A DNA stretch of 10,856 nt, taken from the NCBI GenBank assembly GCA_030587475.2, contig JAUQYZ020000141.1, positions 1 through 10,856 on the forward strand. Reading direction: 5' to 3'. Positions 803-8,257 of the stretch are shown here, piece after piece. Numbering within the stretch: the stretch's first letter is position 1; each line of letters opens with the position of its first letter. The position numbers and the translations under genes are program-made. The notes under the pieces are model-generated. The model made no database searches. It was not told where the DNA came from and saw only the letters and a list, made by a program, of their open reading frames with translations. Origin of the DNA: Candidatus Sigynarchaeum calidifontis (GTDB lineage Archaea > Asgardarchaeota > Lokiarchaeia > Sigyniarchaeales > Sigyniarchaeaceae).

Positions 803-1630
803 TCACGTGTAAAATTGGTTGATGATGTTATCGAGGATCCGCTTGATCGCGGCGATGGCCACGTCCCCAGGGGCAATATCGAGCAACGGAAATCCTTTCA
901 TATCTGCCTCGACCGCGGCGCGTGAATGTGGAATGGTGCCGATCACGTCGATACCCCTGGATTTTAATTGTTCCACGACCGCATGACCTTCCTTCTCATC
1001 GCCAACCTTGTTCACGATTGCACGAATGTGCTTGATATGAAGCTGGTTCGCCATTGATGCTAGTTTTTCCCCAACCTGGATTGATTTCTGGCCGGGTTCG
1101 ACCACGACGAGCAGCAGATCGAGCCCCCTAGCCGTCGCTCGGCCCATGGACGACTCGATGCCAGCCTCGAAATCGAGAATTACGAGCTCATCTCGCTGGA
1201 CGATTAAATGGTACAGCAGCTCACGCACCAATGCATTGCTCGAGCACAAGCAGCCGCTCCCGGGGTCCTTGATGGTGCCGAGCACCAGCAACCGCACGCC
1301 GTCAGGGCCTGCCACGGCGAATTTATCGGGTATATCGCTTACCTTCGGGTTCAGCTTGAAAGGACCGCCGCCCTCGCCAGGTGCCACGCCCGTTCGTTCC
1401 TTGATCAAGTCCTTCATCTCGCTAATCGGGCATCCTATCTTGTCTGTGGGAATGCCCAGGGCCATCCCAAGGTTCAATGACGGATCATTATCGATCGCCA
1501 GCACCCGGCTGAACGTCGTTGAACGCGCCGCGAGCCGCGCAAGTGTCGAGGCCAATAACGTCTTCCCCACGCCCCCTTTTCCGGCGATACCTATTTTCAA
1601 CCCTTTTTTCGGGCCGTTCGCACCATTCAT
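803..1630 (-). CDS. cooC: CooC/AcsF-type nickel-insertion ATPase (MinD/SIMIBI family), 275 aa
   Basis: KIGIAGKGGVGKT deviant Walker A, AIDNDPSLNL, FKLNPKVSDIP, GSGCLC metal-binding CxC, DFEAGIE, VNKV. Homology starts at ATG 1630 (MNGANGPKK), with AGGA upstream. The 81 extra codons in the ORF track are probably not coding. Confidence 0.88.
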   Translation of the reverse strand: MNGANGPKKGLKIGIAGKGGVGKTLLASTLARLAARSTTFSRVLAIDNDPSLNLGMALGIPTDKIGCPISEMKDLIKERTGVAPGEGGGPFKLNPKVSDIPDKFAVAGPDGVRLLVLGTIKDPGSGCLCSSNALVRELLYHLIVQRDELVILDFEAGIESSMGRATARGLDLLLVVVEPGQKSIQVGEKLASMANQLHIKHIRAIVNKVGDEKEGHAVVEQLKSRGIDVIGTIPHSRAAVEADMKGFPLLDIAPGDVAIAAIKRILDNIINQFYT

Positions 1631-1733
1631 CCGTGATCCTACTCGCTGCACTGGCGTCAAGGAACCGCAATCATTTATTCTCCCCCATTCCGTGAAATGC
1701 ATGTGCGACCGGTCATCGCATAGCTGACCGAAC

Positions 1734-1799
1734 ATGACGCCACGGACGACGTTTTTTGTTTCGATCGTGCCATTCATCTTTAATGGCCCCGGGAACTGA
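1734..1799 (+). CDS. Putative Phe-rich leader peptide MTPRTTFFVSIVPFIFNGPGN* upstream of pheS
   Basis: ATG 1734 to TGA 1797-1799; Phe codons TTT 1752, TTT 1755, TTC 1773, TTT 1779. No clear SD. Support is contextual only (position before pheST, overlap with hairpins). Confidence 0.35.
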   Translation: MTPRTTFFVSIVPFIFNGPGN

Positions 1800-1896
1800 A
1801 CGCTCGAGTGGATAGTTTCCCGGGGGGCTCGGTCGGGGATGTTTCCCCACGCTAGTAATGGATTGAGAAACATCCTCGCTTGTTTTCGTTCTTTTT
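1787..1896 (+). promoter_or_regulatory. Alternative-hairpin cluster ending in a hairpin plus T-tract (attenuator/terminator-like)
   Basis: Stem A: 1787-1797/1814-1825 (11 WC pairs, one bulge). Stem C: 1834-1845/1867-1878 (12 bp, one G.U), followed by TTGTTTTCGTTCTTTTT (1880-1896). Competing stem B: 1817-1823/1833-1839. The pairings are seen directly; the function is inferred. Confidence 0.45.
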
Positions 1897-1938: not shown

Positions 1939-1952
1939 GCGGAATGTTCCGC
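1939..1952. promoter_or_regulatory. Palindrome GCGGAA-TG-TTCCGC, operator-like
   Basis: Perfect 6+2+6 dyad next to AT-rich CTTAAGAATAAA, about 50 bp upstream of pheS. Confidence 0.35.
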
Positions 1953-2004
1953 AATCCTTAAGAATAAAGGAGTTTGATGAATCACGATAAAGGGATTGAT
2001 CATC

Positions 2005-3558
2005 ATGGTCTCACTCAAACCGCTGACCACGTCGGTCTTGAAGGCACTCAAGTCTGCAAGTGGCATAGATGCAGCAGCATTGGCCAAGCAACTTGGACAA
2101 GACTATGCCGTGGTCATGGGTGCCATAAATGAGCTCGCGGAACATGATCTTGGCTATTTCAAGGAGGAAGAAGCGATCGAGATCGCATTGACAGCCGAGG
2201 GGGCGGATTACGGGAAGAATCATCTCCCTGAAACGCGTCTCTTCAAGCTCATTTGTGACTTAAAAGTCAAGCAGATCGAACTAAACGCCTTGAAGGAAAA
2301 GGCAAAAACCGAACTAGGCATGGACGAGAAACTATTCTTTCTCTCTGTGGGTCATCTCAAACAAGCACGGTGGATAAGTCAGGCAAAAATACGCGATTCC
2401 GTGCAAGTCATCGTGCTCAAGCAAGAATACGAGGCAAAACCAGAGGAGCAGCTCCTAGCGCTCCTCGTCGCCAAGGGCGGGTCGTCTGACCTTCGCGAGA
2501 TCCCCGAGGAGATGAAGCCCATGGTCGATGGCTTTAAAAAACGAACCCTCGTCATCGAAAAAAAGTACACGAAGCGCGCTCTGTACTTGACCGACAAGGG
2601 CAAGAAGCTCGACCTGTCCAAAGTGAGCGTGCTAGACGAGGTCACGCATCTCACCACGGAAATGATCACGACCGGATCGTGGAAGGGAATCAAGCTCAAG
2701 GCATATGACGTGTCGAAGCCGGGTGCACATCTCAACGCTGGAAAGATCCACCCGCTAATCGAGATAATCAACAAGGTGCGGGAGATTTTCTTTTCCATGG
2801 GTTTTATCGAGATACGGGGCCCCATCATCGAATCTGCATTCTTCAACTTCGATGCATTATACCAGCCACAAGATCACCCCGCACGCGAGATGCACGACAC
2901 CTTTTACTTGTCAAATCCAGCAAGGGCCAGGCTCCCGGATGAGAAATACGTGAAAGCGGTCGCTGAGGTGCATGAGAACGGGGGCAACACGGGGTCTACA
3001 GGCTGGGGTTACAAGTGGAACCGCGACGTCGCCACGCAGACCATCATGCGCACGCACACGACGGCCACGACCGTGCGACAGCTCGGCAAAGCCATCGAAG
3101 AGGGCGTTAAACTCCCGCTGAAGGTATTTTCCATCGACCGCGTCTACCGGAACGAGAAAGTGGATTTTAAACATCTCGCCGAGTTCATGCAAGTCGAGGG
3201 TATCGTCATCGGCGAGCGGCTGTCGCTTGCTGACTTGCGCGGCTTGCTCGTCGAGTTCTACACGAAGATGGGGTTCGAGAAGGTCATCACGCGGCCTGGT
3301 TTCTTCCCGTACACCGAGCCAAGCCTCGAGGTCAGCGTGTTCTCGAAGGAGCTCGGCAAATGGATGGAGATCGGCGGTTCAGGCATTTTCCGGCCAGAAG
3401 TTTGCACGCCGTGGGGCATCAAGGAACCCGTGCGCGTGCTCGCGTGGGGACAAGGCCTCGAGCGCATCGCGATGCTGCGCTTGAAACGTAGCGACATCCG
3501 TGACTTGTACAAGAACCCGCTATCGTGGCTACGAAAAGCCCCATACCCGAGGTTGTGA
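2005..3558 (+). CDS. pheS: Phenylalanine--tRNA ligase alpha subunit, archaeal/eukaryal type with long N-terminal extension (517 aa)
   Basis: NFDALYQPQDHPAREMHDTF, RTHTT, motif 2 FSIDRVYRNE...HLAEFMQVEG, FFPYTEPS, GIFRPE, motif 3 AWGQGLERIAM. ATG 2005 has AGGGA at 1991-1995. Confidence 0.97.
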   Translation: MVSLKPLTTSVLKALKSASGIDAAALAKQLGQDYAVVMGAINELAEHDLGYFKEEEAIEIALTAEGADYGKNHLPETRLFKLICDLKVKQIELNALKEKAKTELGMDEKLFFLSVGHLKQARWISQAKIRDSVQVIVLKQEYEAKPEEQLLALLVAKGGSSDLREIPEEMKPMVDGFKKRTLVIEKKYTKRALYLTDKGKKLDLSKVSVLDEVTHLTTEMITTGSWKGIKLKAYDVSKPGAHLNAGKIHPLIEIINKVREIFFSMGFIEIRGPIIESAFFNFDALYQPQDHPAREMHDTFYLSNPARARLPDEKYVKAVAEVHENGGNTGSTGWGYKWNRDVATQTIMRTHTTATTVRQLGKAIEEGVKLPLKVFSIDRVYRNEKVDFKHLAEFMQVEGIVIGERLSLADLRGLLVEFYTKMGFEKVITRPGFFPYTEPSLEVSVFSKELGKWMEIGGSGIFRPEVCTPWGIKEPVRVLAWGQGLERIAMLRLKRSDIRDLYKNPLSWLRKAPYPRL

Positions 3559-3581
3559 ATGAAAGACAAGAGGAGAACAAC

Positions 3582-5246
3582 ATGCCAACCATCGAATTCA
3601 CGCTGCAGCGCATCCAGAAATTACTGGGCAAACAAGTCACGATCAAGGATCTCGAAATGGATCTCCAGTGGATCGGCTTGGACATGGACGAGATCAACGA
3701 GGAAGATGGTAAGATCAAGGTCGAATACAATCCAAACAGGCCGGATTTCAGCTCGCCGGAAGGCATTGCCCGGGCGTTGAAAGGATATTACGAGATCGAT
3801 ACGGGACTTCCCACTTTTTCGGCAAAGGGTGGCGACTACAAGGTCAATGTCGACCCCCTAGTAAACCAGGTACGCCCCTTCATCGCGACGGCCATCGTGC
3901 GCGGCATCAGTCTCGATAGCGATCAGGTTGCAACCCTCATGAACACGCAAGAGGATCTCCACTGGGCCATCGGCCGCAATCGCAAGAAAGTTGCTATTGG
4001 CGTGCACGACCTCGACAAGATAGAGCCACCATTCACGTACACGGCAGTCAAGCCAGATGCGATCAAGTTCGAACCGCTCCAGATGCCCGGCTACCAGCTC
4101 ACGCCCGCGCAGATCCTCGAACAGCATCCCAAGGGCAGGGAATTCGCGTACATCCTCAAGGATACAGGGATCTACCCGATGATCTTCGACAAGAACAACA
4201 ACGTGATATCTTTCCCGCCCATCATCAACGGCACGCTCACGATGGTCACCGACGACACGAAAAATCTTTTCATCGACATGACGGGCACCGACCTAAAAGC
4301 AGTGAACTTCGCCCTCAATGTCTTTTGCACGATGCTCGCGGACATGGGCTGCAAGATCGAGAAAGTGACCAACATGTATCCCGATGGCCCTCGTGTCACG
4401 CCAAATTTCGCTCCTGCAGAATGGACCGTGGACGAGGAGTATATTAACAGCTATCTCGGCTTGAAATTGCCCGAAGCAGACATAATCAAGGCATTGCGCA
4501 AGGTTCGGCTCGATGCCAAGCCGGGCAAGAGGAAGGGATCGCTTGACGTGCTCGTGCCCTGCTATCGAGGCGACCTCATGCACCCGGTCGACTTGACCGA
4601 GGAGGTCGCGATCGGCTTCGGGTACTCGAACTTGCCCACGACGATCCCCCAAGGCGGCATCGGGAAGTACCATCCAAAGCTCCAAGCGCAAGCCCTTGTC
4701 CGCAAGGTGATGATCGGCCTCGGTTTCCAGGAAGTCGTGAACTTCATCCTCACCAACAAGGAGAAGAGTTTCACAGCGACTCGGCGCAAATGGAAAGACG
4801 GCGTCGTGTTAAAGAACCCCGTGTCGAAGGAATACGACACGACCCGTCAAGACTTGCTATCAGGCCTTCTCCAGAACTTGCAAGATAACAAGCACGAGAG
4901 CATCCCGATAAAGATATTCGAGGTTGGAGACGTCATTATCCTCGATAAAAACGAGGAAACAGGTGCCCGCCGGGATGTACATGTTGCGTGCGTGATTTAT
5001 GACAAGGATGCAGGATACACCGATGCACGTTCCGCCGTCGACGCGTTCATGGAGATGCACGACATCGAATCCTTCGATGTGATCGCTGCAACAAATCCAT
5101 TTGGAATCGAGGGCCGTACCGCGGACATCATGATCGACAAGAAACGCGTCGGTTCCTTGGGCGAAATTCACCCGGAAATCCTTTCAAACTTTGATCTTGA
5201 ATTCCCCGTCGCATTCTTCGAGATGAACCTGGAGCCGTTAATCTAG
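3582..5246 (+). CDS. pheT: Phenylalanine--tRNA ligase beta subunit, archaeal type (554 aa)
   Basis: MPTI start, PNRPD..S.EGIARAL, QEDLH..IGRNRKKVAIGVHD, SFPPIING, YRGDLMHPVDLTEEVAIGFGY, NPVS, IFEVGDV, GEIHPEIL. SD GAGGAG at 3570-3575 supports ATG 3582. Confidence 0.97.
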   Translation: MPTIEFTLQRIQKLLGKQVTIKDLEMDLQWIGLDMDEINEEDGKIKVEYNPNRPDFSSPEGIARALKGYYEIDTGLPTFSAKGGDYKVNVDPLVNQVRPFIATAIVRGISLDSDQVATLMNTQEDLHWAIGRNRKKVAIGVHDLDKIEPPFTYTAVKPDAIKFEPLQMPGYQLTPAQILEQHPKGREFAYILKDTGIYPMIFDKNNNVISFPPIINGTLTMVTDDTKNLFIDMTGTDLKAVNFALNVFCTMLADMGCKIEKVTNMYPDGPRVTPNFAPAEWTVDEEYINSYLGLKLPEADIIKALRKVRLDAKPGKRKGSLDVLVPCYRGDLMHPVDLTEEVAIGFGYSNLPTTIPQGGIGKYHPKLQAQALVRKVMIGLGFQEVVNFILTNKEKSFTATRRKWKDGVVLKNPVSKEYDTTRQDLLSGLLQNLQDNKHESIPIKIFEVGDVIILDKNEETGARRDVHVACVIYDKDAGYTDARSAVDAFMEMHDIESFDVIAATNPFGIEGRTADIMIDKKRVGSLGEIHPEILSNFDLEFPVAFFEMNLEPLI

Positions 5247-6910: not shown

Positions 6911-8257
6911 TTAATTGCCCTTCTCTGCCGGTTTAGCGGGTTTCTGTTCTGAAGGTTTTAATTTCTTGACAGCCTCGATAGCCTCGGGTTTTGCCTTGAA
7001 AACCAAGTTCCGTTCAGGGGGCTTGTAAACCCTTCCAGGTCTCCTTCCTTGTTGGGGGTAACCCTTCCCTTGCTGTTTTTGTGACCCTGGTTTCTGACCC
7101 GCGGGTTTTTGCGAGGTTGATTGCTTTACTGCGGGCGTTTCCTTCGCAAGCGCGGGTTGTCTCACTGGTTCTACCCCTGCAAGCTTTTCAGGATTGCCGG
7201 TTGCCGATTTTGCAGCGGGCTCGGCCATGACCGGCTCATCATCCGTCCCAGAACCCTCGCTCGTTTCCATTTCTCCCGTTTCCAGGTTATCGAAGCTTTG
7301 CTTCACGGCGTTCAAGGCGAAGTTGACGAGCGCGTTGATGCTTTCAAATCGTTGCTTGTCCTTGATTTCCCCTTCCATCCAGTAGAATAAATCCTCCTCG
7401 ACAGCGATGTTCAAGTGAACGACATCGGACTTGCTGGACACGTCCTCCGCCTTCTTGTTCGCGAGCCAGGCGAAAATATTCCCGACAAGCGTGAAGTTGC
7501 TGGCGGCGAACAAGCCATATATCCTGGAGATCGAGGTGATGATCGAAAAATTGCCGCATGCTACCACCTTGCCCTGCCCATGACGCTTGACAATGATCAA
7601 CGGGCAATCCGGGGCCGGTTCTGGTTGTCCCCATTCCCCGTCCTTCCACAGGTTTCGCATCGCGTGGGGACCAGATTTCACGAGGATCGTGATCCTTTCA
7701 TCCTTGATGTCGATGTCGCACCCCGATGCATACACGATCTGGCTCACTTCCCGGGTGATAAAGTGTCTCGCGGTGATCCGGGGCAGAATATACTCTTGTT
7801 TTTCCGCGTAATCCACCGTGTCAACGATGATCCCGGGAGTGAAGGTAAACCCGAATTCCTTCGCGACATCGTTCAAGTTTGATTTCGCCTTGGCATCGCC
7901 ACCCTCGTCGGCGATCAAGAAAAGGGACCCGCCACTGTTCACGAACTCGACGATTGCCTTTATCTCCGTTTCCTCGATCTTTCCTTCTTGTGGGCTACCT
8001 ATCACGAGCACTTGATAGTCGCAAAGCTTCTGCCAGGAGATCCAGGTCTCGATCTTGCCGAGGCGGTACCCTGATCGAAACAACATGTCAACCAGGCCTT
8101 CGTGCTGGACTTGTTCGATGACGAGCTTCTCCTTGTGTCCTTGGGCAAAGCATATAGCGACGGACTCGGGCTTTTCTTCGCTTATCATTGAAGATGCCAA
8201 CGATTGATGGGTTAATGTTGGAGTAGATCGCTCTGGGATAACAAGCTTCCTTGACAT
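6911..8257 (-). CDS. GIFT (GldG/IFT52-like, DUF4350-like) domain plus predicted ribbon-helix-helix domain plus disordered tail (448 aa; alternative start 8188)
   Basis: YQVLVIGSP...EIKAIVEFVNSGGSLFLIADEGGD....NLN.....FG, IVYASGC, GQGKVVACGN, N..L..NIFAWL fit the GIFT/class-I GATase-like fold. HLNIAVEEDLFYWMEGEIKDKQRFESINALVNFAL fits a beta-alpha-alpha RHH. No signal peptide or TM segment is apparent. Confidence 0.7.
   Translation of the reverse strand: MSRKLVIPERSTPTLTHQSLASSMISEEKPESVAICFAQGHKEKLVIEQVQHEGLVDMLFRSGYRLGKIETWISWQKLCDYQVLVIGSPQEGKIEETEIKAIVEFVNSGGSLFLIADEGGDAKAKSNLNDVAKEFGFTFTPGIIVDTVDYAEKQEYILPRITARHFITREVSQIVYASGCDIDIKDERITILVKSGPHAMRNLWKDGEWGQPEPAPDCPLIIVKRHGQGKVVACGNFSIITSISRIYGLFAASNFTLVGNIFAWLANKKAEDVSSKSDVVHLNIAVEEDLFYWMEGEIKDKQRFESINALVNFALNAVKQSFDNLETGEMETSEGSGTDDEPVMAEPAAKSATGNPEKLAGVEPVRQPALAKETPAVKQSTSQKPAGQKPGSQKQQGKGYPQQGRRPGRVYKPPERNLVFKAKPEAIEAVKKLKPSEQKPAKPAEKGN

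Follow-up and report, generated by a model that had tools for sequence, protein, structure and literature searches.

Leader-peptide attenuation is well known in bacteria and relies on the coupling of the ribosome to RNA polymerase. The Escherichia coli pheM-pheST locus is a leader-peptide transcription attenuator. In E. coli tnaC and Rho-gated leaders and in pyrL-type attenuators, the position of the ribosome gates factor-dependent termination or directly melts one hairpin, and TnaC detects free Trp by means of its nascent peptide. In archaea, the trp leader of Methanothermobacter, controlled by the TrpY repressor, may contain a very short Trp leader ORF; to our knowledge, no other archaeon has given any hint of a cognate-codon leader ORF. 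No published example of an archaeal leader-peptide attenuator was found in the literature searched, most subscription papers lying outside it. Archaeal termination depends on U tracts and aCPSF1 and does not require a hairpin (PMC8716108). The lokiarchaeal aCPSF1 terminates at U4 tracts, also with no hairpin requirement, and functions in Methanococcus (PMC8716108). aCPSF1/FttA has been described as the archaeal analogue of Rho (PMC13681488).

In the lokiarchaeon Candidatus Sigynarchaeum calidifontis, a short Phe-rich ORF lies upstream of pheST, and we consider it a leader that serves as a ribosome-read gauge of Phe supply (probability about 0.85). Asgard archaea are the closest prokaryotic relatives of eukaryotes, and such leaders bear on the ancestry of eukaryotic uORF-based control by amino acids.

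Gene Organization of the pheST Locus

The window (the whole stretch of DNA that was analyzed, 10,856 nucleotides) carries pheS and pheT next to a divergently oriented gene.

803–1630, minus strand: divergent CooC/MinD-like ATPase gene (Pfam PF01656)
2005–3558, plus strand: pheS, phenylalanyl-tRNA synthetase alpha subunit (Pfam PF01409, E value 1e-85; start set by homologues)
3525–5246, plus strand: pheT, beta subunit (ORF from GTG 3525; Pfam PF17759, PF03484, and PF18262)

The intergenic gap between the start of the ATPase gene at 1630 (minus strand) and the start of pheS at 2005 is 374 nt long. The pheS of the window shares 85% identity with pheS of a Promethearchaeota MAG, and the true start of pheT is probably ATG 3582 rather than GTG 3525. 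Antisense coding across the leader was considered and rejected: the minus-strand frame of the ATPase gene is open to 1873 in the window and is closed 20 and 9 codons upstream in the same-genus sequences G001 and L287, respectively. An identical 8-mer is present at 1623–1630 (ATPase start, minus strand) and at 1770–1777 within the leader; it is in frame in the window and interrupted in relatives. Farther along the window, 6911–8257 (minus strand) encodes a protein that combines an IFT52 GIFT-like domain with a long tail rich in Lys, Pro, and Gln.

The pheA gene lies elsewhere in the window's genome, and no Phe leader was found at that pheA. In two genomes of the large family f4 described below (G018 and G102), pheA is located on the same strand 3.5 kb downstream of pheS, with 35–50 nt between it and the ORF before it. 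More than 20 tRNA genes form a dense cluster in the window's own genome (G000:C212:11600-17700), and a tRNA-Sec call was obtained on C88. At locus L007 (G003:C1:3358303; genome 63% complete), the pheS match begins at residue 143, and the N-terminal third was not found within 1.5 kb upstream.

A Phe-Rich Leader ORF Upstream of pheS

1734–1799, plus strand: leader ORF of 21 codons, ending Phe-Asn-Gly-Pro-Gly-Asn-stop (G001, L287, and L288 share the ATG, the end motif, and the stop)
1752–1757, plus strand: upstream Phe codons, a tandem pair (one Phe retained in relatives)
1773–1781, plus strand: Phe 1773 and Phe 1779, conserved as control codons (Phe 1779 lies three codons 5′ of Pro and is invariant)

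A sequence-only reading of this stretch had described the 21-codon ORF at 1734–1799 with Phe codons at 1752, 1755, 1773, and 1779 and a TGA stop, and inspection of the sequence confirmed each of these features. The tandem Phe pair in that description is present in the window but private to this genome, since the corresponding codons read Phe-Ser in G001 and Val-Phe in L287. The suspected Phe enrichment was recovered against base-shuffled sequences (P = 0.004 for at least four Phe codons), but the single sequence alone is only modestly unusual. The ORF fell outside the top 45 of 62,569 uORF/amino-acid tests performed genome-wide. Because the window ORF is not outstanding in its own genome, it is conservation, not the single sequence, that shows the leader to be real.

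Upstream regions of pheS were gathered from about 105 genomes of the class and two metagenome contigs. Family 1 comprises the window, two sequences of its genus (G001 and L287), and L288, which is less closely related; the large family f4 comprises 77 leader-bearing genomes. G001, L287, and L288 retain the ATG, the ending Phe-Asn-Gly-Pro-Gly-x-stop, and the hairpin that overlaps it (hairpin A, below). In the 77 f4 genomes (10 genera), the corresponding ORF ends Phe-x-x-Pro-Arg-x-stop, is in register with the window ORF, and mostly lies 215–245 nt before pheS. A conserved Phe-rich uORF upstream of pheS, expected by the sequence-only reading, is thus found in three family-1 relatives and 77 f4 genomes. 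The window leader, of the family-1 type, is GC-rich, has a shorter ORF, and carries an additional hairpin and U-tract. The leader was not found in the pheS upstream regions of genome G002, of family f2, or of the outlying families. Given its absence from the f2 sequences, the family to which the cultured type strain belongs may have no such leader. A programmed frameshift into pheS was rejected because the pheS frame contains 2–7 stops between the leader and pheS in the four family-1 sequences.

Judged by sequence comparison, the leader ORF is under selection to stay open, and its reading frame, start, and stop are all selected. Over codons −25 to −13, 72 of 74 f4 genomes keep the frame open, compared with 19 and 13 for the other frames and a maximum of 35 in 2000 shuffles. 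The f4 genomes are related and their counts are not independent; this concern is limited by the low identity of the tested stretch, the median pairwise value being 33% over the same codons. The start codon lies at codon −26 in 45 of the 74 genomes, and the stop at +3 in 65, where TAA, TGA, and TAG interchange. The last 12 codons contain 4.0 Phe codons compared with 2.0 in shuffled sequences, and in-frame TTT/TTC codons number 296 versus 25 for TTA/TTG. Phe at −3 is present in all 74 genomes, always as TTT, and is encoded by TTC in L288. The N-terminal half of the peptide is not conserved, and its hydrophobic run is approximately 10 residues long. This strong evolutionary signature suggests that the leader ORF is translated.

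In genus g9 (L022, L025, and L048–L050), one extra base places the stop just before Pro. The frame is open for at least 27 codons, and most members have no in-frame ATG, which suggests a non-AUG start or decay; hairpin A is kept with a compensated base pair. At L006 (G002), a Phe/Ile-rich stretch that ends in a stop and has no start codon lies approximately 330–290 nt before pheS; it may represent decay of a leader or an error of assembly.

RNA Helices Associated With the Leader

1787–1825, plus strand: hairpin A (arms 1787–1797/1814–1825, one bulged base; the 5′ arm holds the last three codons and the stop)
1725–1732, plus strand: 5′ UTR segment before the leader start, pairing with 1759–1766 (helix P0) or 1828–1835 (helix Y)
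1834–1878, plus strand: hairpin C (arms 1834–1845/1867–1878, 12 pairs)
1880–1896, plus strand: U-rich tract, a candidate premature termination site in the sequence (similar pyrimidine tracts in G001 and L287)

The positions first given for hairpin A, hairpin C, and the U-rich tail agreed with the sequence, and the distance from this tail to pheS, proposed to be about 110 nt, measured 109 nt (start at 2005). Across the alignments, hairpin A emerges as the universally conserved helix. Paired bases make up 90% of its cells, with 31 double-change cells compared with 11.9 in shuffles (0/500), and slid controls were 37–61% paired; all nine pairs (9/9) form in the four family-1 sequences. Hairpin A is one covarying stem of the kind that the earlier proposal sought in relatives. 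In a genome-wide search, the hairpin pattern turned up a single time in each genome, and this was at pheS. Hairpin A could be lengthened at its lower end by pairing of the pyrimidines at −4 to −2 with GGA, which is compatible in 80–97% of genomes; this extension was rejected because its covariation did not exceed that given by column composition.

In helix P0, the bases immediately 5′ of the leader start pair with the codons that directly precede the Phe run, and the helix closes over the start codon. The P0 duplex had an energy of −10.1 kcal/mol with its own partner, −6.4 kcal/mol with cross-genus partners, and −4.5 kcal/mol with shuffled sequences, and its equivalent covaries in the 77-genome family f4. 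In the window, G001, and L287, P0 forms 6/8, 7/8, and 5/8 pairs, and helix Y, with A-U/G-C double changes, forms 7/8, 8/8, and 8/8 pairs.

Hairpin C forms 12/12, 11/12, and 10/12 pairs in the same three sequences, with G-C to U-A changes. It is kept in the genus only, and a different hairpin takes its place in L288. No conserved second hairpin or hairpin-U terminator was found in the 77 genomes of f4, where U4 tracts follow hairpin A in only about a third of the genomes and the 10 nt after the GGA of hairpin A are 57% U. The folding z score in the window was −2.0 for 1734–1896 and −2.9 for 1785–1880. Rfam gave no match at E values up to 1 in the window and only two chance-level, unrelated hits across six homologous loci. 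A T-box riboswitch was accordingly rejected, as neither the window nor these loci had a T-box match and the conserved features track a reading frame. A sigma-70/terminator scan, which does not cover archaeal signals, left the region unflagged.

Promoter-Like Sites

1665–1680, plus strand: P1, BRE/TATA-like, predicted start near 1703 (best intergenic site in two of three motif models, 9.4–11 bits)
1949–1964, plus strand: P2, second BRE/TATA-like site, 40–55 nt before pheS (overlaps the GC palindrome 1939–1952)

The promoter motif models were trained on 940 divergent upstream regions of the window's genome; tRNA upstream regions yielded no usable promoter motif. P1 is conserved in G001 and L287, and in the AT-rich family f4 it scored no better than shuffles. 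P2 scores weakly in the window (1.0–3.6 bits) and is conserved in all four family-1 sequences. In f4, a strong match to P2 is found 70–80 nt before pheS in 69 of 74 genomes. From these matches, pheS probably has its own basal promoter at P2, which could leave pheS largely independent of the leader. The sequence-only reading had held that a pheS transcription start downstream of 1900, with no transcript from upstream, would speak against the attenuator; the promoter-like P2 lies downstream of 1900 and in part fits this, yet the best-scoring site, P1, lies upstream of the leader.

The GC palindrome at 1939–1952 overlaps the BRE of P2 and is conserved in three genus members. In f4, a semi-palindromic element (TCTA-N8-TAGA-like) lies approximately 45–30 nt upstream of the P2 TATA (e.g., L019 and L027), is duplicated in genera g7 and g16, and is possibly a transcription-factor site. 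Pairing of the element upstream of P2, or of the segment after its TATA, with leader segments was rejected, as it showed no excess over cross-genus controls.

Cognate Leaders at Other Amino-Acid Genes

Similar leaders were observed at other amino-acid genes of the class. Poly-Leu leaders precede leuA in 10 of 13 loci (leuA loci listed with cognate leaders are L218, L219, and L227–L239), an Ile-run leader is present at a second ileS in 30 of 30 loci (L172–L201; f4 genera g6 and g11), and a poly-Ile leader precedes cimA (L223 and L226). His-rich leaders were found before two his operons (L257 and L258) and Trp-rich leaders before three trpA-first operons (L275, L280, and L281). The leuA, cimA, his, and trpA leaders lie 85–150 nt before the first gene, and a long hairpin directly follows each of them; in the case of Leu and His, this hairpin is not followed by a U run. 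The second ileS has a patchy distribution with 80–94% identity and was perhaps acquired sideways; part of the post-stop hairpin of its leader is complementary to the segment that precedes the leader start.

The window's genome has additional examples. A 26-codon leader rich in Ile, Leu, and Val lies 81 nt upstream of ilvB on G000:C250 (start 3576, minus strand), with a strong SD, a P1-type BRE/TATA, and a hairpin after the stop that carries, in its loop, the complement of the leader SD; this leader is also present in G001 and G002 (loci L289–L291). Two short Trp leaders with a common 5′ sequence were located on G000:C208 (minus strand) and at G000:C203:1170-1205, the latter preceding a trpB2-like gene and showing a clear hairpin and U run. 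A cognate leader was absent at tyrS, trpS, valS, proS, thrS, glyS, serS, hisS, metS, aspS, and the native ileS in five genomes, and none was found at homocitrate-synthase-like genes.

As far as these sequences go, the amino acid of each leader strictly matches the gene downstream. No other argument weighs as heavily as this matching against a small membrane peptide or a by-product of U-richness. The set of cognate leaders in Asgard archaea could provide compact natural reporters for transcription–translation coupling and for the gating of aCPSF1 termination.

Effect of Ribosome Position on Folding

Folding was computed at equilibrium at 37°C, not co-transcriptionally, with the ribosome modelled as a footprint. 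The archaeal ribosome covers 15–16 nt from the P site (PMC7261190). With a ribosome at the stop (1797–1799), the footprint reaches to about 1809 and arm 2 of hairpin A starts at 1814, so that this second segment is uncovered. The probability of hairpin A was 0.92–1.0 for stalls at codons −8 to −4, 0.47–0.92 at −3, and 0 at Pro or stop. Computed P0 responded in the opposite manner: it was broken by a ribosome on the Phe codons and reformed with a ribosome at the stop. Similarly, the hairpin of the Leu leaders survived the stall and was half melted at the stop. The sequence-only reading had a Phe stall mask arm 1 and thereby allow an antiterminator, stem B. Because a Phe stall leaves hairpin A mostly folded and a ribosome at Pro or stop melts it, that sign is reversed, and arm 2 is freest at the stop.

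1817–1839, plus strand: stem B, the proposed antiterminator (arms 1817–1823/1833–1839, two G·U pairs; drawable, not supported)

Taken in isolation, the piece 1810–1845 folds best as stem B (−8.3 kcal/mol). The probability of stem B in context was at most 0.04, even on transcripts ending before the right arm of C. It forms 7/9, 9/9, and 7/9 pairs in the three genus members and 2/9 in L288, and no counterpart was found in the 77 genomes of f4.

In L288, a Phe stall gave 4–6 bp of Y and 0.1–1.7 bp of the terminator-like hairpin; with a ribosome at the stop or with no ribosome, 5 bp of P0 and 4–5 bp of the terminator-like hairpin were formed. The modelled L288 folds thus appear to show a three-way switch of the expected sign. 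In the window, Y rose on stalling at one transcript length (from 1.4 to about 5.5 bp), but C did not fall; Y overlaps hairpin C by only 2 nt. In the window, G001, and L287, C was largely formed in all states and, if anything, firmer with a ribosome on the Phe codons. For example, hairpin C of G001 reached 0.85–0.88 with a ribosome on the Phe codons compared with 0.70 when naked (one length), and the base pair of C in the window reached 0.9 compared with 0.12–0.46. In f4, a search for downstream sequence that pairs and covaries with the freed 5′ segment found none.

Proposed Mechanism and Alternative Explanations

The gauge may act by setting how much of the upstream transcript continues into pheST, through premature termination involving hairpin A, P0, and Y; on the modelled folds, we give this output roughly even odds. 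With ample Phe-tRNA, the ribosome would run to the stop and leave, and the P1 transcript would end near 1880–1896 by the U-tract/aCPSF1 route. With scarce Phe-tRNA, a stalled ribosome would release the 5′ UTR segment, which could then pair past hairpin A, in helix Y and not in stem B, and Y pairing would let the polymerase read through into pheST. P2 would supply a basal level of the essential enzyme.

Other outputs of Phe sensing fit the data less well. The classical 1:2/2:3/3:4 switch of the sequence-only reading, in which a stall at Phe 1773 or 1779 frees arm 2, stem B forms, and terminator C is blocked, is quite unlikely. B can be drawn in three genus members and could be a kinetic trap before the right arm of C is made, and C and its U-tract are conserved in the genus; however, B is improbable even on transcripts cut before that arm, hairpin A stays at 0.72–1.0 during Phe stalls in nearly all folds, the freeing of arm 2 at the stop has the wrong sign, C is formed at nearly every ribosome position, and B is lost in L288 and in f4. 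What holds of that reading is a conserved Phe-rich leader tied to a covarying hairpin before pheST; the switch through stem B is not supported. Yeast SRG1 over SER3 is a case of transcription interference and serves as the model for an inverted logic, in which a Phe stall would keep A and C folded, end the P1 transcript at the U-tract, and leave P2 free, and read-through at ample Phe would damp P2. The greater stability of C and its base with a ribosome on the Phe codons in G001 and the window is consistent with this logic, as are the conservation of P2 directly downstream in both families and the U-richness after hairpin A in f4. Nevertheless, we consider it unlikely, because read-through would itself yield pheST mRNA and L288 shows the opposite sign; moreover, the Leu and His leaders share the layout of a hairpin after the codons only 85–100 nt from their genes, and there a stall most simply raises read-through. 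The wider version, in which Lokiarchaeia use ribosome-read gauges genome-wide on a non-bacterial switch and a stall at pheST ends the upstream transcript and unblocks P2, is improbable to the same degree. Phe sensing may alternatively have a post-transcriptional output, through mRNA stability (access of aCPSF1 or another nuclease) or through initiation of pheS translation. No conserved terminator exists in the large family f4, in several sister leaders (ileS and ilvB) the leader's own ribosome-binding region pairs with sequence past the stop, and mycobacterial polycysteine leaders provide a precedent (bioRxiv 10.1101/834739). The start of pheS, however, is more than 200 nt away, beyond P2, and pairing between the Phe tract and the 5′ region of pheS shows no covariation (own −6.3, cross-genus −6.25; 69 genomes), so such an output is doubtful at pheST.

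It is very unlikely that the element is not a sensor at all, i.e., that it is a gene for a small hydrophobic peptide or a U-rich terminator or RNA element with Phe codons as a by-product. Base pairing does explain several residues near the stop (Leu/Pro/Ser, Pro, Arg, and Glu) and a Gln-Asp-Ser motif, the Phe codon at −3 is uniformly TTT in f4, and genus g9 has the hairpin with no in-frame ATG. Nonetheless, frame, start, and stop bear the marks of selection, the N-terminal half is unconserved with a hydrophobic run of only some 10 residues, the enriched amino acid follows the downstream pathway (Phe, Leu, Ile, His, or Trp), and no leader of this kind precedes homocitrate-synthase-like genes or most other synthetase genes. 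In a check for an arrest peptide, residues −1 to +2 were accounted for by pairing, and genus g9 stops before Pro; the invariant Phe and Pro could act through the peptide.

Comparison With Known Leader Systems

The proposed ribosome-read Phe gauge most closely resembles E. coli pheM-pheST and pheL-pheA (pheL: PMC3082878). In both, an ORF with a run of Phe codons precedes genes for Phe-tRNA ligase or Phe synthesis, a hairpin overlaps the 3′ end of the ORF, and the fold depends on the position of the ribosome. Unlike pheM and pheL, the present leader has an archaeal host and no sequence or Rfam match to them; its control codons lie 5′ of the hairpin, with the stop inside the 5′ arm; it has no supported 2:3 antiterminator and no family-wide hairpin-U terminator; and an additional helix covers its start codon, with a second promoter-like site upstream of pheS. 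The leader is not filed as a member of the pheM/pheL class because the 2:3 antiterminator and the stop-position tests failed.

In contrast to TnaC, the signal here appears to lie in the cognate codons, most of the peptide sequence being free of constraint. The primary control of the Methanothermobacter trp genes is a DNA-binding repressor, and that leader is not part of a conserved multi-amino-acid system. In the leaderless short-ORF polycysteine attenuators of mycobacteria, termed a "ribulon" (bioRxiv 10.1101/834739), the stalled ribosome makes the following gene's ribosome-binding site accessible, whereas pheS lies more than 200 nt downstream with no covarying pairing. The present leaders nevertheless share with them cognate-codon runs that end short ORFs, several loci per genome, and, probably, reading by ribosome pausing.
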